A DNA stretch of 64,000 bases from NCBI RefSeq assembly GCF_024223415.1, contig NZ_CP100500.1. One strand, given 5' to 3'. The stretch comes from Escherichia coli (GTDB lineage Bacteria > Pseudomonadota > Gammaproteobacteria > Enterobacterales > Enterobacteriaceae). A program made the translations under genes and the position numbers. How positions within the stretch are numbered: position 1 is the first letter of the stretch; each line of letters begins with the position of its first letter. The notes beneath the pieces are model-generated. The model was not told the origin of the DNA. It saw nothing but the letters and a program-made list of their open reading frames with translations, and searched no databases. Below, piece by piece: positions 43,910-60,000 of this stretch.

Positions 43910-44581
43910 ATGCGCGTACTGGTTGTTGAAGACAATGCGTTGTTACGTCACCACCTTAAAGTTCAGATTCAGGATGCTGGTCATCAGGTCGATGACGCAG
44001 AAGATGCCAAAGAAGCCGATTATTATCTCAATGAACATTTACCGGATATTGCGATTGTCGATCTCGGATTGCCAGACGAGGACGGTCTGTCACTGATTCG
44101 CCGCTGGCGTAGCAATGATGTTTCACTGCCGATTCTGGTATTAACCGCCCGTGAAAGCTGGCAGGACAAAGTCGAAGTATTAAGTGCTGGTGCTGATGAT
44201 TACGTGACTAAACCATTTCATATTGAAGAGGTGATGGCGCGAATGCAGGCATTAATGCGGCGTAATAGCGGTCTGGCTTCACAGGTCATTTCGCTACCAC
44301 CGTTTCAGGTTGATCTCTCTCGCCGTGAATTATCTATTAATGACGAAGTGATCAAACTGACCGCGTTCGAATACACCATTATGGAAACGTTGATACGCAA
44401 TAATGGCAAAGTGGTGAGCAAAGATTCGTTAATGCTCCAACTCTATCCGGATGCGGAGCTGCGGGAAAGCCATACCATTGATGTACTGATGGGACGTCTG
44501 CGCAAAAAAATTCAGGCACAATATCCGCAAGAAGTGATTACTACCGTTCGCGGCCAGGGCTATTTGTTCGAATTGCGCTGA
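43910..44581 (+). CDS. phoP: Response regulator PhoP
   Basis: 223-aa OmpR-family regulator [40 protein letters not shown]... Confidence 0.97.
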
Positions 44582-46041
44582 TGAAAAAATTACTGCGTCT
44601 TTTTTTCCCGCTCTCGCTGCGGGTACGTTTTCTGTTGGCAACGGCAGCGGTAGTACTGGTGCTTTCGCTTGCCTACGGAATGGTCGCGCTGATCGGTTAT
44701 AGCGTCAGTTTCGATAAAACTACGTTTCGGCTGTTACGTGGCGAGAGCAATCTGTTCTATACCCTTGCGAAGTGGGAAAACAATAAGTTGCATGTCGAGT
44801 TACCCGAAAATATCGACAAGCAAAGCCCCACCATGACGCTAATTTATGATGAGAACGGGCAGCTTTTATGGGCGCAACGTGACGTGCCCTGGCTGATGAA
44901 GATGATCCAGCCTGACTGGCTGAAATCGAATGGTTTTCATGAAATTGAAGCGGATGTTAACGATACCAGCCTCTTGCTGAGTGGAGATCATTCAATACAG
45001 CAACAGTTGCAGGAAGTGCGGGAAGATGATGACGACGCGGAGATGACCCACTCGGTGGCGGTAAACGTCTACCCGGCAACATCGCGGATGCCAAAGTTAA
45101 CCATTGTGGTGGTGGATACCATTCCGGTGGAGCTAAAAAGTTCCTATATGGTCTGGAGCTGGTTTATCTATGTGCTCTCAGCCAATCTGCTGTTAGTGAT
45201 CCCGCTGCTGTGGGTCGCCGCCTGGTGGAGTTTACGCCCCATCGAAGCCCTGGCAAAAGAAGTCCGCGAACTGGAAGAACATAACCGCGAATTGCTCAAT
45301 CCAGCCACAACGCGAGAACTGACCAGTCTGGTACGAAACCTGAACCGATTGTTAAAAAGCGAACGCGAACGTTACGACAAATACCGTACAACGCTCACCG
45401 ACCTGACCCATAGTCTGAAAACGCCACTGGCGGTGCTGCAAAGTACGCTGCGTTCTCTGCGTAGTGAAAAGATGAGCGTCAGTGATGCTGAACCGGTAAT
45501 GCTGGAGCAAATCAGCCGCATTTCACAGCAAATTGGCTACTACCTGCATCGTGCCAGTATGCGCGGCGGGACATTGCTCAGCCGCGAGCTGCATCCGGTC
45601 GCCCCACTGCTGGACAATCTCACCTCGGCGCTGAACAAAGTGTATCAACGCAAAGGGGTCAATATCTCTCTCGATATTTCGCCAGAGATCAGCTTTGTCG
45701 GTGAGCAGAACGATTTTGTCGAGGTGATGGGCAATGTGCTGGATAATGCCTGTAAATATTGCCTCGAGTTTGTCGAAATTTCTGCAAGGCAAACCGACGA
45801 GCATCTCTATATTGTGGTCGAGGATGATGGACCCGGTATTCCATTAAGCAAGCGAGAGGTCATTTTCGACCGTGGTCAACGGGTTGATACTTTACGCCCT
45901 GGGCAAGGTGTGGGGCTGGCGGTAGCCCGCGAAATCACCGAGCAATATGAGGGTAAAATCGTCGCCGGAGAGAGCATGCTGGGCGGTGCGCGGATGGAGG
46001 TGATTTTTGGTCGCCAGCATTCTGCGCCGAAAGATGAATAA
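44581..46041 (+). CDS. phoQ: Sensor histidine kinase PhoQ
   Basis: 486-aa ORF overlapping the phoP stop; two TM segments, periplasmic sensor, HAMP and HisKA/HATPase domains. Confidence 0.97.
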
Positions 46042-46147: not shown

Positions 46148-46987
46148 TTCGGCGCACTGTATGAAACAACGTGGAACAAATAGGCACAAGAAATATAAAG
46201 GCGGGTAATTTTAAGGGGGCGTTGCTGTCGATATGGGGATCCACATAACGGGGCTACCTGGCTTTTTTTCCGGTTAAATGTCAATCAGGCTGGTGGGCTT
46301 TACCTGTTCGGTAGGTGTTATGATTATCGTAATACCTTTCCCCCAATGGGGTAAAAGCATCAACCGTAACGAAAGTCGTTATGGTTGCCACCGATACTCC
46401 AAATTTGGGTATCACGAGTAAGCCCCAAAATCTGGGTGTTACTCTTACTACCCAAACTACGGGTAGTTTCCGTAGTTTCATGGTCGAGTTGCAGATCTGC
46501 AACTCCCCCATCAACCACAGGCGAATTTCCGCCTTCGGTCATTCCTTAATCATCTGCGTAATCATAATGATTATTCAGCCAGCTCAATTTTGAGCTTTGC
46601 TTTAAGTTCAGCGAGTTACCGCGCCGACTTCCTCAAATTGAGGTTTCCGAAAATATCAGTGGGTTAGCGATTAAGCAGATGGATAATTAACCTGCGAAAA
46701 TTTCGCAGGTTACATCAGCGACGTAATTCTCGCTGTTCCTGCCCGGAGGTGTCGACGAATTTCGTCGGAACCTAAGCCTGCCGGGAAGTCCGTACGTTAA
46801 ACGTACGGAGTTAATTCGACATCACACACTACGTTGTCAATTTGCAAAGGAGGGGCGGAAATCACCATACCTGCCACCCTGTCATACAGAAAGGGATTAC
46901 GATAATCGTAACAGGATACAACGCCGCCTGTAATCGTAACCAATTGATTTTTATGATGACGCAAATCTGCGTTATCAGTCCTCAAAG
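46148..46987. other. 840-bp non-coding arm of the island, rich in hairpins and short repeats
   Basis: No convincing ORF. Contains palindromes CCAAATTTGG, GTTGCAGATCTGCAAC, AACCTGCGAAAATTTCGCAGGTT, CGACGAATTTCGTCG, CCGTACGTTAAACGTACGG and TTACGATAATCGTAA, plus three ATCGTAA motifs. Confidence 0.4.
46163..46189 (+). repeat. Phased heptamer array 1 (GAAACAA, GGAACAA, GGCACAA at exact 10-bp spacing)
   Basis: Read directly; lies just inside attL. Confidence 0.7.
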
Positions 46988-51852: not shown

Positions 51853-52425
51853 TCACACCCCCGCTAAATCCACCCACCAGCGGCGATTATCCGCACGCGG
51901 CATTTTTTCGGGGTGCTGCTCATACAGGGAACGGCGGGCCAGCTCCACGCCGGAATCGGGGTAAGCCGGTACCGATGTAACGGTAATTTCGTACAGTTCC
52001 GCCACCAGCACGGTACGAACGCATGGATCTGTTGTGGTATCCCATACATCCTTACGGGAGCGAAAGCCAAAGCTCATGCCGGATATATCACCGCGTTTAA
52101 CCAGTTCGATAACGTCGCGCCCTGTACTGGTATCCGGTGGGGTCAGTTCAAAGCGTAACCCTGTTTCGTCCTCTTCCAGTTTCAGCGTGCCGGAACGGGT
52201 GCGCCCCAGTAACATGCTGTGGTCATGCTCATACAGGCCGCGAACGTCATTACCCGCCGCAAGCCATTCAGTAAACGCCCCCCGCTGGAATTTTTCGTAA
52301 AACTCACCCCATAACAGTTCTGAAAGCTTATCCCAGCGAACAACGTAGCCCGTCAGCGTACCGGCTCCGCTCGTGGTGATTTCCGATGACCGGATTTCCA
52401 TACTCTTCATAATTTTTTCACCCAT
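51853..52425 (-). CDS. Prohead protease (HK97 family)
   Basis: 190-aa ORF between capsid and portal genes; resembles HK97-type prohead protease. Confidence 0.8.
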   Translation of the reverse strand: MGEKIMKSMEIRSSEITTSGAGTLTGYVVRWDKLSELLWGEFYEKFQRGAFTEWLAAGNDVRGLYEHDHSMLLGRTRSGTLKLEEDETGLRFELTPPDTSTGRDVIELVKRGDISGMSFGFRSRKDVWDTTTDPCVRTVLVAELYEITVTSVPAYPDSGVELARRSLYEQHPEKMPRADNRRWWVDLAGV

Positions 52426-52464
52426 AAAACACTAAAGGGGCTTTTAAGCCCCTTCTGTATGCTG

Positions 52465-53622
52465 TTAATCGTCGTCCTGTGGCAGTTCCAGAATCTTGAT
52501 CGCGTTCGAATCCACCACGCCACCGCCTAAATATTTCTGCGTGAAAATTTTGATGAAGCCCGGCTCTGTGATGTTGTCCGGTCTGGTGCGAACACCTGTT
52601 TCGTGATCAACAATGTAGTAACCGCGTTTGAAGTCACCCAGGGCAATAACGTTATCAGGCATAAACTCCAGATATTCGACCGGAAGGCCCAGCAACGTAT
52701 CAGGATCACCCGCCTGTAAACGGTCGCGCCAGATGTAATCACCGTTCGCGTTCTTCACCTTCTGAAGTTTTGCCGCCGTTGTGGAGTTAACCACCCATAC
52801 CGCGTTCTTGCGGTATTTTTTACGCAATGCAAATTTCAGGTCGATCAGCGGGTCCGCAGATGTCCACGCCAGACCGTGAGCGGGCTTGATAACCTGCAAC
52901 GTTCCGAAGTCGCGTTCTTTGTCGCTCTTCTCTGCACGGGGGACGGATAAAAAGCCTTTTGCTTTTTTGTCACCGTCGCCCACAACCAGATCGCTTTCTT
53001 CGGTTTCCGTGAAGGTGTCGCCAATCTCGGCCGTCAGCCATGAAAGGATGTCCACATCGGAAAAATCCACGATTTCCTGTGTGGTGCGCGGGTACGCATA
53101 GACCGGATACAGCTTAATGCTCACCTCGTTAATCTGCGGGGTGCTGGTCTGTTCGCGTGCCTTACCCTCTTCACCGTGGTTAACGGTCGCACCGCCAGCG
53201 GAAACAAGCTGCTTAAACTCGTTGCTGCTGATTTTCTTCACGGTACAGATGCGGCGCATGGTGGATTCATCCGCCAGCATTCGCATGATTTCGGTGTTCA
53301 GTTCGGGGATAACGGTATAACCACCATCAGCGGGAACGCCTGTACTTAATGCGCGGGTTTCACCTGTCAGAATGTAGTTGCGTAGTTCTGCGGGGTCAGT
53401 GGTCTGACTGCTTTTACCTGGCTTGCTGCGCTCTTCGTCTGCAATGGCTTCAAGGCGGGAAATGTCTTTATCGAGGGATTCAGCTTTAGCGCGTAATTCA
53501 TCAAATTTTGCGCCCTCAGCATCGTTAAGACTGCGGTTTTCTTTTTCCGCGTTCTCCAGCATGTCGCGCATCTGATTTTTAATGGCGGTTTTCTGCTGGC
53601 GTAATTCGATTATTCTCGGCAT
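52465..53622 (-). CDS. Major capsid protein (HK97 fold)
   Basis: 385-aa product from MPRIIELRQQKTAIKNQMRDMLENAEK (ATG at 53622): N-terminal delta/scaffold-like coiled coil then capsid domain. The track ORF extends to a TTG at 53667. Confidence 0.85.
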   Translation of the reverse strand: MPRIIELRQQKTAIKNQMRDMLENAEKENRSLNDAEGAKFDELRAKAESLDKDISRLEAIADEERSKPGKSSQTTDPAELRNYILTGETRALSTGVPADGGYTVIPELNTEIMRMLADESTMRRICTVKKISSNEFKQLVSAGGATVNHGEEGKAREQTSTPQINEVSIKLYPVYAYPRTTQEIVDFSDVDILSWLTAEIGDTFTETEESDLVVGDGDKKAKGFLSVPRAEKSDKERDFGTLQVIKPAHGLAWTSADPLIDLKFALRKKYRKNAVWVVNSTTAAKLQKVKNANGDYIWRDRLQAGDPDTLLGLPVEYLEFMPDNVIALGDFKRGYYIVDHETGVRTRPDNITEPGFIKIFTQKYLGGGVVDSNAIKILELPQDDD

Positions 53623-53836
53623 AAAAAAAAGTCCTGGGGTTAAGTAAGGAACTCCAGGACGCGGCAAAAACTCAACCGTTTTTCATAAGGAAATCAGCAA
53701 TCGCACCGATCGTTTTCCCGCCTGGTAATGAATATTGGCGAGCACATTAACAGGCGGGAAAGTGGCCCCAGCGTCCTGGCACCACGGGCGAGAATAATCA
53801 TGATTCAGTTCGAGTAAAATATGCCGATCCGCTCAG

Positions 53837-53863
53837 TGAACAACCTGGAACAACCACGAACAA
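53837..53863 (+). repeat. Phased heptamer array 2 (TGAACAA, GGAACAA, CGAACAA at exact 10-bp spacing)
   Basis: Read directly; lies in the divergent region between the capsid gene and the moron. Confidence 0.7.
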
Positions 53864-53937
53864 ATAATTTACAAAACCTGAAAAAATAAATAAACTGTTC
53901 CGTACATTTTCTGCTCGTTAATCAGGAGGAACGAACT

Positions 53938-54411
53938 ATGTCAGAAAATGAACTGAAAAAAGCAATGTTCATTCAGCAACGATTGCAGATTCTCCACCTT
54001 GGTAAACACTATGATGAGTTCAGTGATTCTTACGTGTATGCCTGGGAGGCAGATGTTTATCCTTTCTTGCAGGATGGCGACGGAAGTATTCCTGCTCGCC
54101 CACATGAAATTTACGAAGAGTTTTTCGGCACATCTAAAAACAAAGCCAAAAAGATATACGATCGTCTGTGCAAAGCCTGGCACGACCAGGAGGCACTCAC
54201 ATTCTATAAACTAGAAAGTGAATATGGTGTAACAAGTAGCAGCATGCACAGATGGACACGAAGTGATTTACTTCACATCTGCCGCTATCTGTATCTTGAG
54301 GGGTGTTTCGATAAAGATTTCTGGGAAACATTACTGGAAAACGGAAAATGCCCAAGCGAAGCACTTTACCTTAGCGATGAATTTAATCGCGATACAGAGA
54401 TCGACTTCTAA
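53938..54411 (+). CDS. Hypothetical protein (157 aa), moron cargo gene
   Basis: Only + strand gene in the island interior; strong SD (CAGGAGGAACGAACTATG); own hairpin terminator; visibly lower GC than flanking genes; acidic C-terminus; no recognisable motif. Confidence 0.7.
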   Translation: MSENELKKAMFIQQRLQILHLGKHYDEFSDSYVYAWEADVYPFLQDGDGSIPARPHEIYEEFFGTSKNKAKKIYDRLCKAWHDQEALTFYKLESEYGVTSSSMHRWTRSDLLHICRYLYLEGCFDKDFWETLLENGKCPSEALYLSDEFNRDTEIDF

Positions 54412-54416
54412 AAAAA

Positions 54417-54446
54417 TGGCCTGGAAAATACCAGGCCATTATTATT
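54417..54446. terminator. Bidirectional terminator after the moron
   Basis: TGGCCTGG-aaaata-CCAGGCCA hairpin flanked by an A-run and a T-rich tract. Confidence 0.8.
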
Positions 54447-54734
54447 CTACCGTTTCACGGGATCACGCATTCTGCGCCTTATTTTCCACAGATATTCGAT
54501 CATCGCTTCCACCTGCTCACGGTTGGTTGCGAAAATTTCCCCGGTCAGTGAGCTACGCAGAAAATCATGATGATCCACAAAAAATAACGCATCGGAAGAA
54601 AGCAGCCGGAGATATTTTTTTGCTGTCGTGCTTTCCAGATCATCAAAATCATGAAGCTTTTTATGTTGCTGGACTTCTTCAAATGTCACTGGCATGTTTC
54701 CTCCTGCTACCACGATACCAGAAACAGTTAACAA
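54447..54734 (-). CDS. Hypothetical protein (95 aa)
   Basis: ORF at the distal end of the leftward replication operon; no motif recognised. Confidence 0.55.
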   Translation of the reverse strand: MLTVSGIVVAGGNMPVTFEEVQQHKKLHDFDDLESTTAKKYLRLLSSDALFFVDHHDFLRSSLTGEIFATNREQVEAMIEYLWKIRRRMRDPVKR

Positions 54735-54740
54735 CCGTTA

Positions 54741-55022
54741 TCAATTATCCCCTTTTTTAGGGTAGTTCCTGAACATCTCACCGCCAGGCTTCTGTAAGCC
54801 CATCCCGGTATGTGTGCGGTTTATGGCCTCTTTCAGTATTCCGAAATTATCCGGTATGACTGGTGGGCGTGCTGCCTTACGGATACATTCCGCGCGACGC
54901 TTTGCCACTTGTTCGCGCTCCTTGTCAGTGCTCACCAGCCACATAACATCAGCCCATCGCGCGGCCGCCCTCCGGTAAAATCCTTTCGCCTCCAGTTCCT
55001 CCGCTATCCGGTCATGTACCAT
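54741..55022 (-). CDS. Hypothetical protein (93 aa)
   Basis: Start placed at ATG 55022, 10 nt after the ssb stop (the track ORF extends into ssb); MVHDRIAEELEAKGFYRRAAARWADVMWLVSTDKEREQVAKRRAECIRKA... Possible small regulator; unverified. Confidence 0.5.
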   Translation of the reverse strand: MVHDRIAEELEAKGFYRRAAARWADVMWLVSTDKEREQVAKRRAECIRKAARPPVIPDNFGILKEAINRTHTGMGLQKPGGEMFRNYPKKGDN

Positions 55023-55032
55023 CGTCACCCCC

Positions 55033-55443
55033 TCAGAACGGAATATCATCACCGTAAGGGTCATCGCCTCCCGCTGGTGGCTGATTACCCTGTGTGCCTG
55101 TGGTTTTGCGTCTGTTCCCACCAGGACGTGCCGCACGCGCACTGATTACGCTGTCTGCGATAACCTGCCAGCCCTGCCGCGTTTCCCCGTTCTGTCCGGT
55201 CCACTGGCTGACCTGCATCGTGCCGGATACGCTGGCAACGTCGCCTTTTTGATGTTTAGCCAGAAAGTCGGCCTGTTTGCCAAATGCGATGACCGATAAC
55301 CATAACGTCGCCTGTCCGTCCTGTGCCTGGCCGCATGGTAAAGATACCGCCATACGCGCCAGCGTCATCGGTGTACCCTTACTGGTCTGTTTTACCTGCG
55401 GGTCGTCCACCAGCCGCCCGTAAGCTGCAATTTGTGCTGTCAT
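55033..55443 (-). CDS. ssb: Single-stranded DNA-binding protein
   Basis: 136-aa ORF with OB-fold-like core resembling E. coli SSB and the C-terminal acidic tail ...DDPYGDDIPF. Confidence 0.85.
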   Translation of the reverse strand: MTAQIAAYGRLVDDPQVKQTSKGTPMTLARMAVSLPCGQAQDGQATLWLSVIAFGKQADFLAKHQKGDVASVSGTMQVSQWTGQNGETRQGWQVIADSVISARAARPGGNRRKTTGTQGNQPPAGGDDPYGDDIPF

Positions 55444-55452
55444 ATTGCCACC

Positions 55453-55758
55453 TCAGTGAAGCGATCCGGCGTTGTTCTTTTTCATCTCTTCCATCATTTT
55501 TTCAGTGAGCATTACGCACTGAAAACCCATGTTTTTGATGTCTACGGGTTTCATGCCTTTGTCAGTGGATATCACAGGCAGAATATCCTGATACACATCG
55601 CCGCCAGGGTAACTAAGCACACAAAGCGCCCATGATGCCACGGGTGAGGATCCTTGGTCTGTTTCAACCCACCAGCCTGGTGTAGCTGCGCTTATTTGCA
55701 GAATCGTGATCCGTCCGTTGTGCTTGTAAAATTTTTCACCACATTTTGGTTCGCTCAT
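55453..55758 (-). CDS. Hypothetical protein (101 aa)
   Basis: ORF between ssb and the origin. Confidence 0.55.
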   Translation of the reverse strand: MSEPKCGEKFYKHNGRITILQISAATPGWWVETDQGSSPVASWALCVLSYPGGDVYQDILPVISTDKGMKPVDIKNMGFQCVMLTEKMMEEMKKNNAGSLH

Positions 55759-56036
55759 GCTTCCACCTCTCCGGTTTTAACGTTGATGGTTGTCACCTGT
55801 TCCGCTCCGGCAATCTCCCGTTCTGTCAGCGTGGCAAAATTTGCCGCTACCGTTGTCATGAATGCGCTTATCAGTTCGGGATGTGCTTTCGCGTATCCTT
55901 CTCCCGCGTGGCGGTCTATCGTTCTGATTGCCACCTTTAAGGCGTGCTCTGTCATGTCTAACGCTTTATATTTTGGCGCTGTCTTATCTCTGGTTTTTCT
56001 GTTCATTCCCCACCACTCCCCACTTTTGCTCCCCAC
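55755..56036 (-). CDS. Hypothetical protein (about 83-93 aa)
   Basis: ORF immediately downstream of the iteron array; true start probably the internal MNRKTRDK (56006) because the upstream codons lie within the iterons. Confidence 0.45.
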   Translation of the reverse strand: MGSKSGEWWGMNRKTRDKTAPKYKALDMTEHALKVAIRTIDRHAGEGYAKAHPELISAFMTTVAANFATLTEREIAGAEQVTTINVKTGEVEA

Positions 56037-56221
56037 TTTTTAAATTCCCCACTTGCTCCCCACCTCGTTTTTTGAGTGAATCTAATGCTTTGTTTTTCAT
56101 TGCGTTTTTTGCTCCCCACTTTTTTGGATGTATACAGGTGGGAAAGTGGGGAATTATGTTTCAATTTTGTTAAATTCCCCACTCTCCCCACTTTTACTAC
56201 CCACTTTTTACAGTGGGTAAA
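56007..56221. repeat. Iteron array, putative replication origin of the island
   Basis: At least 9 direct copies of (C/T)TCCCCAC(TTTT) at irregular spacing plus 3 inverted copies (AGTGGGGAA, GGTGGGAAA, CAGTGGGTAAA) with A/T-rich spacers, directly 3' of the rep gene. Confidence 0.8.
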
Positions 56222-57614
56222 CATCATCCCCATCGACACAAATCACGCCGTCTTTTTCCAGCTTGTACAGCCAGCGCCGGAAGTGCTTCATCTCATACCC
56301 CAGCTTTTTCATATCGTCGCGGAGAAGGGCGATAGTGCATGGCTCTTTGTGTGCCGTCCGCGTTCTGATGCACTGCCATAGCGCGGCGTGATTCTCCGAT
56401 TTGTTGCCTGCTTCCTCGATGCGCTCCAGTTCAGCAGGGGCGCGGGGAACGTCAATCACCACCATAGACACAATCTCTTCGCCATCTGTATCGGTGAACA
56501 CCTCCACGCTTTTAAGGTCGTATGCACTCTCTTTTGGCTCCTCTGCGTCCTTCATCTTCGTACACGCCGCCACCAGTGCTGTAACGTCTGAATTTTCCCG
56601 GCTGATTCGGTACTCTGCATCAAGCGCGGCACGGAATGCGCTGGAACCACGCGCCCCCTTTGTTTCATCCTTGCCGGAATGGTGAACCACCAGCACCGTG
56701 GCCCCTGTGGCCTGCTTTATCGCGTCACACCCCTGGATAAATGCGCCCATATCACGGGAATCATTTTCATCATTCCCACCAAAGCAACGGGCCAGTGTGT
56801 CGATCACAATCAGCCGCACATTTTCGCCCGTTCTGCTCTTAACAAGTCCGGCAGTCCTGATAACCTGCTCCACATAGTCAGGCGATGCAGGGAAAACAGG
56901 CGCGTTAATGATGCACAAATCTGTAACCACCTTGTCGTGGGTTATCTCCCACGCCTTAACGCGGCGTTTTACGCCCATGCTGCCTTCACCAGCGATATAG
57001 ATAACCGCCCCCTTACTTACCCTGCGGCCTCCCCATGCCATACCTGTGGCAACATGGCACGACCAGGAAATGGCGAGGAACGATTTATAAGAACCGCTGG
57101 CCCCGTAGGTGCTGCATAATGACTCAGCCGGAATAAGCCCCTTAATTACGTAGCTTTGCTGCGCGTCGAATCCCTCAGAACCCCATGAGATGGGAAGCGT
57201 GATTTTTCGCTTTCCGCCATTCATGACCAGGCTTTCCCCTCTCTCCCATGTTTCCCGTAGTCGTGGTAGCTGGTCGCTCCAGTCCTCCAGCAGTTCGAAA
57301 TTTTCAGAAAGTAGCCGCGCCTCCTGGACTCCGGCGATCGCCAGTTTTGTGGCAATGGTCAGCATCTGCATATCGTCCAGGTTTCCGGCGCGTATGACCT
57401 TTGCCCTGTATCGTCCTTCATCAACAATCTGTAAGTTGTCCAGTTCGCTTAACTGATAACGGCCCAGGTAAACCGGAGGGATGGGATCGCCTGCTTTTTT
57501 GGCCTGTGCAATCATGTAATGTTCTGCAAAGGAGTGAGCATTATCACCCGCAAAAATAACCGCCTCAGTGTGTTTATCTTTCGGTAACAGTTTTACGTTC
57601 GGTGCAAGTTTCAT
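56208..57614 (-). CDS. Replication initiator / RepA-like P-loop ATPase (AAA_25-type helicase domain)
   Basis: 468-aa ORF with central P-loop-like segment (YGASGSYKS...LIVIDTLARCF...VLVVHHSGKDETKG), the pattern of RepA/DnaB-like helicases; N-terminal 150 aa unassigned. Confidence 0.7.
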   Translation of the reverse strand: MKLAPNVKLLPKDKHTEAVIFAGDNAHSFAEHYMIAQAKKAGDPIPPVYLGRYQLSELDNLQIVDEGRYRAKVIRAGNLDDMQMLTIATKLAIAGVQEARLLSENFELLEDWSDQLPRLRETWERGESLVMNGGKRKITLPISWGSEGFDAQQSYVIKGLIPAESLCSTYGASGSYKSFLAISWSCHVATGMAWGGRRVSKGAVIYIAGEGSMGVKRRVKAWEITHDKVVTDLCIINAPVFPASPDYVEQVIRTAGLVKSRTGENVRLIVIDTLARCFGGNDENDSRDMGAFIQGCDAIKQATGATVLVVHHSGKDETKGARGSSAFRAALDAEYRISRENSDVTALVAACTKMKDAEEPKESAYDLKSVEVFTDTDGEEIVSMVVIDVPRAPAELERIEEAGNKSENHAALWQCIRTRTAHKEPCTIALLRDDMKKLGYEMKHFRRWLYKLEKDGVICVDGDDVYPL

Positions 57615-57898
57615 TTCTTACCCCCTGCGACCAGCATTTCACGGATTTTGCGGATATAACTTGCAGCACGTTTCTGATTAACGGCTTTACGATGGCCCAC
57701 CAGCGTGAAATCACGCCGGAACTGATAAACAGGCATAACGCAGTCATATTCGTAGCCTTCACGGCGGTAAGTTACGCGACGTTCCTCCACGCTTTTAATT
57801 GTTACCGTGCCGCCGTAGTTATCTTTGAAAATATCGCCGGGGCGGATTTCAGGCCGAGCGGGGCCGCTGGCAGTAAAGCCAGAATATTTAAGTTTCAT
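57611..57898 (-). CDS. Hypothetical protein (95 aa), translationally coupled to rep
   Basis: Stop overlaps the rep start. Confidence 0.55.
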   Translation of the reverse strand: MKLKYSGFTASGPARPEIRPGDIFKDNYGGTVTIKSVEERRVTYRREGYEYDCVMPVYQFRRDFTLVGHRKAVNQKRAASYIRKIREMLVAGGKK

Positions 57899-57903
57899 TA
57901 TTT

Positions 57904-58137
57904 TTATTCTCCGGTGTGCTGTTCTTTATATCTGTCGTGCAATAGGTCTATTTCCTGCAACTCTGTTATTACAGGTTCAAGGAGAGTTATCAGAGATTTA
58001 ATAATCCGCGCATTCTTTACATCACGCTCATTATCGCCAAATGTATCTGGATACATTTGCAATATTTCGTACATACCTTCAGCGTAAGCAATGGCACTAA
58101 ATGCGCGGTCTATTGTTTCGAGGTAAATATCACGCAT
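57904..58137 (-). CDS. Hypothetical protein (77 aa)
   Basis: Tightly packed with flanking small ORFs on the same strand. Confidence 0.5.
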   Translation of the reverse strand: MRDIYLETIDRAFSAIAYAEGMYEILQMYPDTFGDNERDVKNARIIKSLITLLEPVITELQEIDLLHDRYKEQHTGE

Positions 58138-58138
58138 A

Positions 58139-58387
58139 TTAATCCCCGTCCGTCGTTTTTCTTAAAATAACCTCTGTCACGAAATCAGCATAATCGGCGG
58201 CGATATTCAGTACATCAAGCCCCGTTGATTTATATTCTCTCGTGGAAAGTAAGAAAAAAGCCGCTCTAATAAGCTCTGGCATTGACGAAAGCGCATCAGC
58301 CGCATCATCAGGAACGCCGGAAAATTCCTGTTTCAGGGAATTAAAACGATCATCACGCATAACCCCCCCCATTTTCACAATCAGCAA
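58139..58387 (-). CDS. Hypothetical protein (about 73-82 aa)
   Basis: Tightly packed small ORF; start may be the internal Met at 58360. Confidence 0.45.
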   Translation of the reverse strand: MLIVKMGGVMRDDRFNSLKQEFSGVPDDAADALSSMPELIRAAFFLLSTREYKSTGLDVLNIAADYADFVTEVILRKTTDGD

Positions 58388-58634
58388 TCAGGATGGCTTT
58401 GGCCTCATTCAGTGCCATATCAGCGGTAAGCTGTGCGTAGGCCAGCAAATGCGGGATTATTGCCCCTGTATATTCCGTCTCTCTGGTAATGTGTTTTTCT
58501 GCGGTTGCTGCCGTGCATGAAATATCAATCAGCGCGTGCATCAGCGTTTTGATGGCTTCGGCGGCTGCGTCCGGACGGGTGTTATTGCACATGGCACACC
58601 TCCTGACGGATACGGGCGGCGAATACAGCGACAC
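58353..58634 (-). CDS. Hypothetical protein (up to 93 aa), first gene of the leftward early operon
   Basis: ORF immediately downstream of the divergent promoter region; start uncertain. Confidence 0.4.
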   Translation of the reverse strand: MSLYSPPVSVRRCAMCNNTRPDAAAEAIKTLMHALIDISCTAATAEKHITRETEYTGAIIPHLLAYAQLTADMALNEAKAILIADCENGGGYA

Positions 58635-58872
58635 AACCGGACGGGCAACGGTTACGCGCTTCGCGTTCCGTCCAGGCGGTCACGTGGATAATTTGAGATT
58701 CTCCGGCACTCAGTGCCAGAAAACGCCACACAAAGGCGGTTTGTGTGTGCGCTAGTCGTGGGGTATGCTGTGTTCCAGCCATAATCGTTACTCCTGTTAA
58801 CGGTTTGGTTAGACGCCCTGCATGTGTTACAGCACTGCGGGGCGTTGTCTTTTTAACGGCTTTCGTGATAGG

Positions 58873-58914
58873 GTGTACACCTATCAAGCAAAAAAATAAC
58901 GCTATAGGTGTACA
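58873..58914. promoter_or_regulatory. Palindromic operator overlapping the RHH gene start
   Basis: Perfect 12-bp inverted repeat GTGTACACCTAT (58873-58884) and ATAGGTGTACAC (58903-58914), each half containing the self-complementary GTGTACAC; ends 1 bp before the RHH ATG. Confidence 0.7.
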
Positions 58915-58915
58915 C

Positions 58916-59110
58916 ATGTCAACAGTTATTAAGCGAGATAAAAAACCAAAGGGAACAGGAAAAGCCCCCCCATTCCATATGCGAATAGCTCCAGAACTGA
59001 AAGAGCAGTTTGATAATGAGGCCAGCAATGATGGGGTAAGCCTAGCCAACTGGCTTAAAGAGTTGGGACGCAGTGAACTGAAGCGGCGCGGTATAGAACC
59101 CAAAGGTTGA
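58916..59110 (+). CDS. Ribbon-helix-helix (Arc/MetJ-type) DNA-binding protein, candidate island repressor
   Basis: 64-aa product MSTVIKRDKKPKGTGKAPPFHMRIAPELKEQFDNEASNDGVSLANWLKELGRSELKRRGIEPKG fits a beta-strand plus two helices RHH fold; divergent from the early operon. The track ORF 58745..59110 is an upstream extension. Confidence 0.6.
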   Translation: MSTVIKRDKKPKGTGKAPPFHMRIAPELKEQFDNEASNDGVSLANWLKELGRSELKRRGIEPKG

Positions 59111-59267
59111 TAGCCCACCAGCAAGCCAGGACACTGATCACATTGGCCACCGTGACAGGTGGCCTTTTCTTTGCCCGTTATCCGGCAATTGTGGCGCTTC
59201 GCCACACGGTTGATATAATCCCACTGCTCATATTCATTTTTTGCGCAGCAGGTAAATTGTTCAGAAA

Positions 59268-59296
59268 GGCGGCTCCTTATCGGGGCCGCTTTTTTT
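59268..59296 (+). terminator. Rho-independent terminator downstream of the RHH gene
   Basis: GGCGGCTCC-ttatc-GGGGCCGC hairpin (one G-U wobble) followed by TTTTTTT. Confidence 0.7.
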
Positions 59297-59437
59297 ATGC
59301 CTGAAAAACCGCGATTTTGTTGTTTTTCAGTTTCACAAGGCCGAACGAAGCCCCGCCCCTGTTCCGGCGTATATCCAGTCTTCATGGTTAAATCTCTGTA
59401 TTAGTGGATGGGTGGCGGCTGTGTGCCGCCAGTCTTT

Positions 59438-59626
59438 TTAGTGAACTGCCTCGCAGCTTTCCTTCCATGCCAGAACTTCGGATAAAGACCAGCCAACGGA
59501 ACGACCGCCCAGCTTACGCCGTGATGGGAATTGTCCGGCCTTTTCCAGGCGGTAGCGGCATGAGCGGCTAAGCCCTGTTAGCTTTTCGCATTCTTTTTCA
59601 CGTATAAAACGATCAGTGCTTAACAC
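59438..59626 (-). CDS. alpA: AlpA-family transcriptional regulator
   Basis: 62-aa ORF MLSTDRFIREKECEKLTGLSRSCRYRLEKAGQFPSRRKLGGRSVGWSLSEVLAWKE with the AlpA/MerR-like HTH pattern; sits next to the integrase as in P4-like elements and PICIs. Confidence 0.8.
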   Translation of the reverse strand: MLSTDRFIREKECEKLTGLSRSCRYRLEKAGQFPSRRKLGGRSVGWSLSEVLAWKESCEAVH

Positions 59627-59908
59627 TATTGCCCCCTTTCGTTTCTTAAAGAGTTATTTCGTGTTCTATTGCGTTGGTATGTGTCTGATTGTGTCAGGGT
59701 GATTCAGAGTTGGCAAATGTTGATGGCGGGTATTTTACAGAAACGGGGTGATTTTAATAAAAAACATTTTAATTCAGTATTATGCAAAGGCATAAAATCT
59801 CGTTTCATGCCTTTTTTCTCACTATTTAAAGCGTTATTCGCTAATGTATAAAAAACCAGTTGAGCATTAAAAATCAGCAACTTATAAATCTGTATATTTT
59901 TTGGCCTC

Positions 59909-59955
59909 TTGTTCGTGGTTGTTTCACGTTGTTGCGTATTGTTGCACGTTGTATC
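59909..59955 (-). repeat. Phased heptamer array 3 (five copies at exact 10-bp spacing, opposite orientation)
   Basis: Plus strand reads TTGTTCG, TTGTTTC, TTGTTGC, TTGTTGC, TTGTATC, the reverse complements of CGAACAA, GAAACAA, GCAACAA, GCAACAA, GATACAA; lies between the int stop and alpA. Confidence 0.7.
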
Positions 59956-60000
59956 TGTGCACTTATCCAGTATGCGCATACTGAAAAAACACGAAAAAAA

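Follow-up and report, generated by a model that had tools for sequence, protein, structure and literature searches.

A predicted Arc-like repressor and its operators in the control region of a capsid-forming phage-inducible chromosomal island of Escherichia coli

Introduction

Whether Gram-negative phage-inducible chromosomal islands (PICIs) have a master repressor, and on which promoter it would act, is the question raised by positions 58635-59110 of a 64,000-nt stretch of Escherichia coli DNA (assembly GCF_024223415.1, contig NZ_CP100500.1), called the window hereafter. According to published work, AlpA is the master activator of Gram-negative PICIs. These islands are described in the literature as being without a clear global repressor, the role of a repressor in them was called 'unclear' in a 2018 paper, and later papers treat AlpA as the sole master regulator. 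An earlier note on the window had proposed that a divergent control region, with a rightward gene for a ribbon-helix-helix (RHH) protein of 64 aa and a perfect 12-bp inverted repeat as operator, forms a repressor/anti-repressor switch that comes in addition to AlpA.

The analysis presented here points to a repressor-operator pair, which consists of an Arc-like RHH protein and two copies of a dyad site, O1 and O2, on the promoter of the leftward operon (P_L). The comparative evidence that these parts are such a pair is strong. The region is read as the immunity/control region of a capsid-forming PICI, in which the RHH protein would repress P_L, an antisense RNA would add a second layer and read-through from alpA would bring about induction. 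A probability of roughly 0.6 is assigned to this explanation as a whole.

A Dyad Site Present Twice on the Leftward Promoter

The arms of the inverted repeat, GTGTACACCTAT (58873-58884) and ATAGGTGTACAC (58904-58915), are 100% complementary and have 19 nt between them. The right arm directly abuts the RHH start codon, ATG at 58916, so the coordinates given earlier were one base short; the repeat does lie next to the RHH start, although not 1 bp before it. With a perfect 12-nt inverted repeat and a loop of at most 60 nt as the criterion, such a repeat was obtained in 5 of 5000 dinucleotide shuffles of 58635-59110 and in 2 of 5000 when the 133-nt intergenic stretch was shuffled. By chance ~0.5 perfect 12-nt inverted repeats are expected per 64 kb. 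Others in the window are located at 30318-30356, 30574-30654, 35419-35456, 46688-46712 (near the left end of the island) and 62636-62678 (between roxA and pepT).

As far as can be read from the sequence, the meaningful unit is not a 12-bp hairpin but the dyad site, present twice. The inverted repeat equals two copies of this site, with the core GGTGTACAC(C) and with centres 35 bp apart. O1 (58866-58886) holds the left arm in an extended dyad, TGATAGG-GTGTACAC-CTATCA, that includes the 10-bp palindrome GGTGTACACC at 58872-58881. O2 (58903-58919) holds the right arm, with the core GGTGTACAC at 58907-58915 and ATAGGTGTACACATGT at 58904-58919. Allowing up to one mismatch, the operator is matched nowhere in the 64-kb window except at O1 and O2. 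A dimeric protein would be expected to bind a dyad, and each copy is one.

Both sites are positioned on P_L (58893-58922, minus strand), a strong promoter for which a promoter scan gives the perfect -35 element TTGACA (58922-58917), an 18-nt spacer and the -10 element TATTTT (58898-58893), with a predicted start site near 58886. The -10 element is flanked by the two sites. O2 lies in the spacer and overlaps the -35 element, as well as the Shine-Dalgarno (SD) sequence and the start codon of the RHH gene, while O1, at about +1 to +18 of the leftward transcript, shares positions with the candidate promoter of the RHH gene. With O2 in the spacer and on the -35 element and O1 just past the start, occupancy of either site must hinder RNA polymerase. 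The position of the sites on P_L suggests that the RHH protein is the master repressor of the island. What stands of the repeat as an operator is thus the pair of sites on P_L; in five related loci the copies are direct and not inverted.

The -35 element of P_L is the reverse complement of RHH codons 1-3. Nineteen loci were compared, from E. coli, Edwardsiella, Enterobacter, Providencia, metagenomes and a 15-kb Pasteurella element, and TGTCAA is invariant over these codons in all of them, while TCA accounts for 4 of the 48 other Ser codons. This invariance against the codon usage indicates that P_L is under selection at exactly that place. In Pasteurella, the equivalent promoter is TTGACA/17/TATAGT, which agrees with the consensus at 11 of 12 positions. 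For the RHH gene itself a candidate extended -10 element, TGaTAGGGT (58866-58874, plus strand), was read by eye and is absent from the output of the promoter scan. Most of the 19 loci, Pasteurella included, retain the pattern TGnTA(A/G/T)(G/T)GT, but as it coincides with the left half of O1 it is tentative and cannot count as independent evidence.

Since O1 and O2 overlap the candidate promoter, the SD sequence and the start codon of the RHH gene, the protein could also be seen as a small autoregulator of its own rightward unit, controlling cargo or defence genes, with the overlap with P_L being of little consequence. In several related loci (L004, L005, L007, L009, L010, L012 and L017) the RHH gene is indeed followed on the same strand by variable cargo, namely a putative abortive-infection protein, a SWIM zinc-finger protein, membrane-like or hypothetical proteins of 147-158 aa and a 451-aa protein; the slot after the RHH gene may be a hotspot, possibly for defence genes. 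In the island of the window, however, no cargo gene is present and a terminator-like hairpin (59145-59164) with a T-run (to 59172, plus strand) begins 35 nt past the RHH stop codon, and still the module is intact. Moreover, O2 lies between the -35 and -10 elements of P_L in every locus, so that any occupancy must affect P_L, and the invariance of TTGACA shows this promoter to be under selection. Control of the rightward unit only is therefore considered unlikely.

The RHH Protein

The rightward gene at 58916-59110 (plus strand), with the SD sequence AGGTG at 58906-58910 inside O2, encodes a protein of 64 aa. It is a real RHH gene, as the earlier note had assumed. The protein matches phrog 228, an Arc-like repressor, in the PHROG collection (E 8e-6), and, among PDB entries, a profile of 21 homologues matches the Arc repressor best (E 1e-3) and Mnt, AmrZ and MazE7 less well. 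In this alignment P19-F20-H21-M22-R23 of the RHH protein correspond to Q9-F10-N11-L12-R13 of Arc. The AlphaFold model has a mean pLDDT of 78.5, with block means of 84-93 from residue 21 onward, and contains helices at residues 26-38 and 43-57; the predicted strand covers about residues 19-24 (PPFHMRI) and is unassigned in the monomer model. The best Foldseek matches are the Arc structures 1myl, 1par and 1bdv, with probabilities of 0.97-1.0 and with E values of 0.22-0.47, none reaching E<=0.001; the TM values for the Arc structures are 0.75-0.86 when normalised to the target and 0.62 when normalised to the query. The model has the strand-helix-helix fold of ~45 residues that characterises the Arc/MetJ family, and the sequence and profile similarity to this family is found as well. 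Finally, substitutions by codon position across 17 distinct RHH homologues number 1388/947/4208, position 3 being dominant.

The gene is easily missed in annotations. In strain EDL933 its homologue (TTG start, L002:4328-4519) is omitted by RefSeq, which has a hypothetical protein of 247 aa on the opposite strand (L002:4219-4962); also in L008, L009 and L010 such a 247-aa protein or pseudogene fragments stand opposite the RHH gene. This recurrent pattern is due either to an error in annotation or to a gene overlap. In strain CM2 (L001:9555-9680 compared to position 59110 of the window), the region is otherwise 97% identical and contains 126 extra bases that add a 41-aa peptide after the RHH gene. 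The C-terminal EIKRRQRRKAKEQE of this peptide is shared with a YlcI/YnfO-like protein of E. coli O177, and may mark a recombination joint between modules.

Co-variation of Protein and Sites

The layout of int, alpA, variable cargo, RHH gene, divergent Icd-like gene and primase or helicase is common to all 19 loci. Two sites are present at the same positions in each of them, and both change together: the 10-mer of O2 recurs perfectly in O1, either direct or inverted, in 17 of the 19 loci, while pairings of sites across protein classes average 7.5/10. The centre of the site tracks the predicted DNA-reading strand of the protein. Seven loci, including Edwardsiella, have the strand motif PPFHMRI and the core GGTGTACACC. 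In five loci, including Providencia, PQFRMRI goes together with GGTGACCACC or, flipped, GGTGGTCACC. PQFKMRI occurs with GGTGGCCACC in two metagenomic loci, PAFQ(I/V)RI with GGTG(C/T)GTACC in four loci, PMFNVRI with GGTATAGACC in one locus, and PQYQMRL with GGTA(AT/TA)TACC in the Pasteurella locus. The variable residues 19 and 21 align to Q9 and N11 of Arc, and the invariant R23 aligns to R13. In the Arc-operator complex, Q9, N11 and R13 are the residues that contact the bases. The RHH dimer is predicted to contact the major groove of the dyad sites through an inserted two-stranded sheet, in line with the co-variation of these sites with the residues aligned to Q9 and N11. That two sites with a distance of 35 bp change in concert is a stronger argument than the correlation between protein and site.

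The same data bear on the idea that the inverted repeat works as a hairpin in RNA or DNA, for example by sequestering the RHH SD sequence or as a 5' stem of the leftward RNA. In the window the arms pair perfectly, the right arm contains the SD sequence AGGTG, and also in the Q and N classes the two copies are inverted. In the five PQFRMRI loci, on the other hand, the copies agree at 10/10 positions as direct repeats and at 8/10 as inverted repeats, and a hairpin would there have two central mismatches. Selection has thus kept two protein sites and not a hairpin: it is the identity of the sites that is preserved rather than their complementarity, and a hairpin leaves aside that each copy is a dyad. 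A role as a hairpin is accordingly regarded as improbable.

Two further islands illustrate how the module varies. In EDL933, the control region is 81% identical to the one of the window and contains an RHH homologue together with two GGTGACCAC sites. In E. coli O177:H21 (L003:4326-4408), the same slot contains an unrelated small protein, assigned by RefSeq to the YlcI/YnfO family, which is not significantly similar to the RHH protein. Between its gene and the Icd-like gene, GTGTAAGACAC/GTGTCTTACAC occurs three times. An unrelated protein with its own repeated sites in the same place indicates that the slot holds interchangeable repressor-operator modules.

The Icd/Kil-Like Gene and a Candidate Antisense RNA

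By the range given in the earlier note, the leftward operon would start at 58634. Its first gene is instead an Icd/Kil-like gene of 66 aa (58782-58585, minus strand; NF033153, E 5e-18), which heads an operon of ~10 kb running from this gene to the helicase, SSB and capsid genes. The description as a divergent control region is therefore correct as to the sites on the leftward promoter, but the region to the left of 58782 is the Icd/Kil-like gene and no control region. The smaller palindromes that had been reported do exist, as an imperfect one at 58699-58723 and one with an 8-bp stem at 58727-58747. Both are inside the Icd/Kil-like gene rather than intergenic and are absent from other alleles; lying in this gene, they are doubtful as operators. 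The Icd/Kil-like protein belongs to the same NCBIfam family as Kil of phage P4, as both match NF033153 and phrog_1743, while a BLASTP comparison of the two proteins yielded no alignment.

A neighbouring gene of a cell-division-inhibitor family could fit a toxin-antitoxin system, in which the RHH protein would be an autoregulating antitoxin of the HicB family that neutralises the Icd/Kil-like inhibitor or an unseen toxin. The PGAP name of the homologues, 'HicB family antitoxin', agrees with this, and Pfam HicB matches 14 of the 21 members (RHH_1, RHH_5 and Arc match weakly). It is however the RHH part of the HicB model alone that matches, at residues 20-48, and this explains the name; the 64-aa protein has no N-terminal HicB domain. 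No HicA toxin or any other co-transcribed gene is found downstream at the RHH locus, where the terminator follows instead. Furthermore, a two-gene cassette would look different, as the Icd-like gene is divergent from the RHH gene and is the first of a 10-kb operon. An antitoxin function is thus very improbable.

A candidate cis-antisense RNA of ~80 nt is located opposite the start of the Icd/Kil-like gene (58764-58855, plus strand). Its -10 element is TATGCT (58764-58769), its start is predicted near 58776, and a terminator hairpin (58813-58845) is followed by a T-run to 58854. The RNA would be complementary to the SD sequence and AUG of the Icd/Kil-like gene, and the loop of its 5' hairpin shows CUCC, the complement of the Icd-like SD. 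In a 16-locus alignment, the only invariant positions upstream are TAnnnT (58764-58769) and TGGTTAG (58806-58812), while the N-terminus of the Icd-like protein that overlaps the RNA varies. Among 15 sequences, 93% of the cells are paired and compensatory changes are found in 13 of 19 pairs, a level that was reached by 0 of 500 shuffles and that no slid control came near. The folding energy is -36.0 kcal/mol (z -5.7) for the plus strand, compared to -22.5 for the minus strand, and the plus strand is the stabler one in all 19 loci; owing to the G-U pairs, the structure is strand-specific. A covariance model built on the RNA gives 66.5 bits in an island with a different regulator that was outside the training set, and finds nothing in P4. 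The candidate RNA belongs to no Rfam family. In positions 52000-64000 of the window, a sub-threshold symR match (58777-58849) is the only Rfam match at E<=1, and membership of SymR (RF01809) was rejected, as its 24.7 bits (E 0.43) compare to a gathering threshold of 61, although co-variation supports the structure well.

A Long Frame Antisense to the Repressor Gene

A long open frame of 267 aa (58582-59385, minus strand) begins 53 nt past alpA, passes in antisense direction through the RHH gene and the two operators, contains the whole control region, and ends in frame with the Icd/Kil-like gene. In six loci, including O177 with its unrelated regulator module and Pasteurella, it is open beyond 1000 of 1000 shuffles. 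Neither PHROG nor NCBIfam gives a match to the frame outside its Icd part. Compared to the RHH frame, amino-acid changes in the long frame affect more positions (31.2% against 24.8%) and are harsher (mean BLOSUM62 -0.80 against +0.20), which indicates that, if anything is selected, it is the openness and not the sequence. That the long frame is the real gene and the RHH frame its shadow, as the 247-aa PGAP coding sequence in EDL933 implies, is very improbable in spite of this openness, given its harsher substitutions, the stops that interrupt the antisense frame inside the RHH gene in 5 of the 19 loci, the want of a family match, and the fold, profile, SD sequence and terminator that back the RHH frame. 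Both readings are not exclusive, since the long frame may be translated even if its sequence is of no importance.

The conserved start of the long frame, MKTGYTPEQGRGFVRP (59300-59385, minus strand; L003:4860-5108), is a 5' remnant of a Bro-N/Ant-type gene, and residues 50-81 of the frame in O177 match anti-repressor Ant families weakly. Related islands have intact Bro-N, AntA or DUF2971 genes directly after alpA, while O177 and the window keep only the conserved 5' end of a Bro-N/Ant-type gene. As an intact anti-repressor gene is missing from the window, a protein anti-repressor step is unsupported here, although it may occur in the related islands that carry Bro-N/AntA genes. From the proposed repressor/anti-repressor switch, the first half is retained, as the repeat behaves as an RHH operator pair with co-variation in 19 loci, and of the second half there is only the 5' remnant.

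Two other features lie in this stretch. A candidate small RNA (59211-59297, plus strand), between the RHH gene and alpA and antisense to the long frame, has a perfect extended -10 element TGaTATAAT (59211-59219) followed by ~72 nt, and ends in a strong terminator with the stem 59269-59276/59282-59289 and T7 (fold -24.6 kcal/mol, z -3.8). Its conservation extends to CM2 and O177 and, in part, to EDL933; Rfam gives no match. A plus-strand terminator-like hairpin (59413-59440) is located directly against the alpA stop codon, in a block (59330-59440) that is kept in 4 of 4 islands compared, the one with a differing regulator module included. This hairpin would shield alpA and int from rightward transcription.

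The Island

The right end of the window consists of an island of ~15 kb, from phoQ (44581-46041) to roxA (61470-62600). As listed from integrase to terminase, its genes run leftward: the integrase gene (61251-60001) is followed by an alpA-like gene of 62 aa (59626-59438, minus strand), which is convergent with the RHH gene, by small open reading frames and a DUF4222 protein, and further on by a RepA-type helicase (57614-56208), SSB, and the capsid, portal and terminase genes. In near-identical islands, RefSeq annotates an integrase, RepA helicase, SSB, major capsid, portal and terminase. The features by which Gram-negative and capsid-forming PICIs are defined are all found, i.e., a size of ~15 kb, int, alpA, a replication module, own capsid and terminase genes, and a specific att site. 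The integration site adjoining roxA/pepT and the gene order are the same as in the EDL933 island EcCIEDL933, which is the prototype capsid-forming PICI and needs alpA for its induction. The RHH homologue of EcCIEDL933 differs from the one of the window in having R instead of H at the variable strand residue, with AC instead of TA at the site centre. EcCICFT073, the classical model PICI, was sought in CFT073 at 1.39-1.488 Mb and was not found there, this interval having only a lambdoid helper prophage and core genes. Sequence similar to the Icd-like end of the control region is present in 1147 of 5426 complete E. coli genomes, and similar to the RHH module in ~230.

LexA has no apparent part in the control of the region. 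As had been stated before, no CTG-N10-CAG occurs in 58635-59110, and a LexA-controlled switch is ruled out by the missing box. The only CTG-N10-CAG in 58300-60000 is a weak one between alpA and the end of int (59955-59970, CTGTGCACTTATCCAG), the 20-nt frame from 59953 agreeing with the LexA consensus at 13 of 20 positions.

Known Systems with Similar Elements

The immI region of phage P22 is one of the known systems closest to the one here. It contains the RHH repressors Arc and Mnt, the overlapping promoters Pant and Pmnt, and the sar antisense RNA. The window has in common with it a small Arc-type RHH protein, with Arc as the best match in sequence and fold, dyad operators on closely opposed promoters, and an antisense RNA, here a candidate, as a second layer. 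There are also differences. One RHH gene is present here compared to two in P22, the target is the replication and packaging operon of a satellite instead of an antirepressor gene, two sites 35 bp apart take the place of a single 21-bp operator, and the sequence similarity to Arc is weak (E 1e-3).

Secondly, the region resembles the immunity region of P4, where kil is nested in eta. A constitutive promoter, PLE, lies inside eta and its transcripts are terminated through the CI RNA, while full-length eta is translated only from an upstream late promoter, coupled to the alpA homologue, and this translation prevents termination (PMC10111431). Shared with P4 are the order of int, alpA/vis (Vis being an AlpA homologue), a long frame with a nested Kil/Icd-like gene and primase/helicase, and a promoter inside the long frame. 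In P4 eta (214 aa) the NF033153 domain is found at residues 161-208, as it is at the end of the 267-aa frame; a Kil/Icd-like first gene within a longer frame that begins upstream of the internal promoter and adjoins an alpA/vis homologue, which is typical for P4, is thus present in the window as well. By analogy, the long frame is interpreted as the counterpart of eta. The regulators themselves differ, as P4 uses the CI RNA on the same strand together with seqA, and the window has an RHH gene on the opposite strand, operators and a candidate cis-antisense RNA. The P4 CI/seqA RNAs (Rfam C4, isrK and c4-a1b1) were not found in positions 52000-64000 at E<=1, all three being detected in P4 as a positive control, and the eta/kil region of P4 has no RHH gene. 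The antisense RNA candidate and the long nested frame link the region to immunity of the P4 type.

Thirdly, Stl of SaPIs and Rpr of Gram-positive PICIs are likewise encoded divergently from the replication-packaging operon, with binding sites in between, which are predicted in the window. Stl is a helix-turn-helix protein. Here the fold is RHH, the gene lies after alpA and is convergent with it, and derepression by a helper protein in the manner of Stl/Rpr may not occur. Lastly, the candidate antisense RNA resembles the type I toxin-antitoxin RNA SymR in being a short structured RNA opposite the ribosome-binding site and start of a small growth-inhibitor gene, but besides falling far below the SymR threshold it differs in having a target that heads a long operon.

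Proposed Mechanism

Parts, positions and co-variation come from sequence and comparison; repression, silencing and induction are inferred from them as follows. RHH dimers on O1 and O2 would block RNA polymerase at P_L and thereby keep the island silent. As O1 and O2 also cover the candidate promoter, SD sequence and start codon of the RHH gene, the protein would limit its own synthesis. Transcripts that escape would be silenced by the plus-strand antisense RNA, which would pair with the ribosome-binding site of the Icd/Kil-like gene. Upon infection, the helper phage would turn on alpA, and by analogy with P4 the alpA transcript would run leftward. Ribosomes on the eta-like frame would take it past the RHH gene and across the control region, translation rendering it insensitive to termination and to the antisense RNA. 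This read-through would interfere with the expression and binding of the RHH protein, leaving P_L free. The claim of the earlier note that a control layer exists in addition to AlpA is supported.

Several observations weigh against this explanation. With a spacing of 35 bp, O1 and O2 are predicted to be ~120 degrees out of phase, so cooperative binding to both is not obvious. The correlation between protein and site is partly linkage, because the gene and its operators are adjacent and are inherited together. In the EDL933 class, P_L has a poor -10 element (TAGCCT) and the promoter scan calls no promoter there. The RHH promoter is weak by consensus, and transcription that reads through the terminator of the antisense RNA could express the gene instead. 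In 7 of the 19 loci the long frame is interrupted, and in EDL933 it ends 25 nt before the ATG of the Icd-like gene and not in frame with it. A terminator-like hairpin with a U-run (58976-58952, minus strand) lies within the RHH gene, in its 5' part, and a similar one is found in EDL933; it could stop read-through from alpA just before P_L. No common motif ties the alpA promoter to the control region, since a search for motifs shared by the alpA upstream region and the control region, as for a possible AlpA site, yielded A-rich 9-mers only. Finally, all promoters and RNA ends in the region are predictions.

A more general proposition goes beyond the window. It states that the master repressor of a lineage of Gram-negative PICIs is an Arc-like protein encoded antisense in an eta-like frame, that this frame is kept open not because of its product but for AlpA-driven transcripts, which translation carries past the repressor gene, its operators and the target of an antisense RNA, that within one nested-gene scaffold a protein has replaced the CI-RNA immunity of P4, and that strand residues 19 and 21 and the operator centre form a code. 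This proposition is tentative, with the odds somewhat against it.

Significance

Taken one by one, the parts of the region are textbook: a repressor of the Arc type, operators that sit on a promoter, an antisense RNA and, as in P4, nested genes. Their combination is undescribed in the searchable literature. A literature search for an RHH protein or a repressor in PICIs or capsid-forming PICIs returned nothing relevant, although most subscription journals were outside this search, so that it is no proof of absence.

For the biology of these satellites, an Arc-like protein with two matching sites on the promoter of the main operon suggests that Gram-negative satellites do have a master repressor. 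A divergent RHH gene is also present in the prototype EcCIEDL933, where it is hidden by the RefSeq annotation, which makes the question testable with existing strains. The natural variants of protein and operator offer a small specificity code for RHH proteins. In addition, the module links the control of PICIs to immunity of the P4 type, and it accounts for the recurrent mis-annotation of this region.

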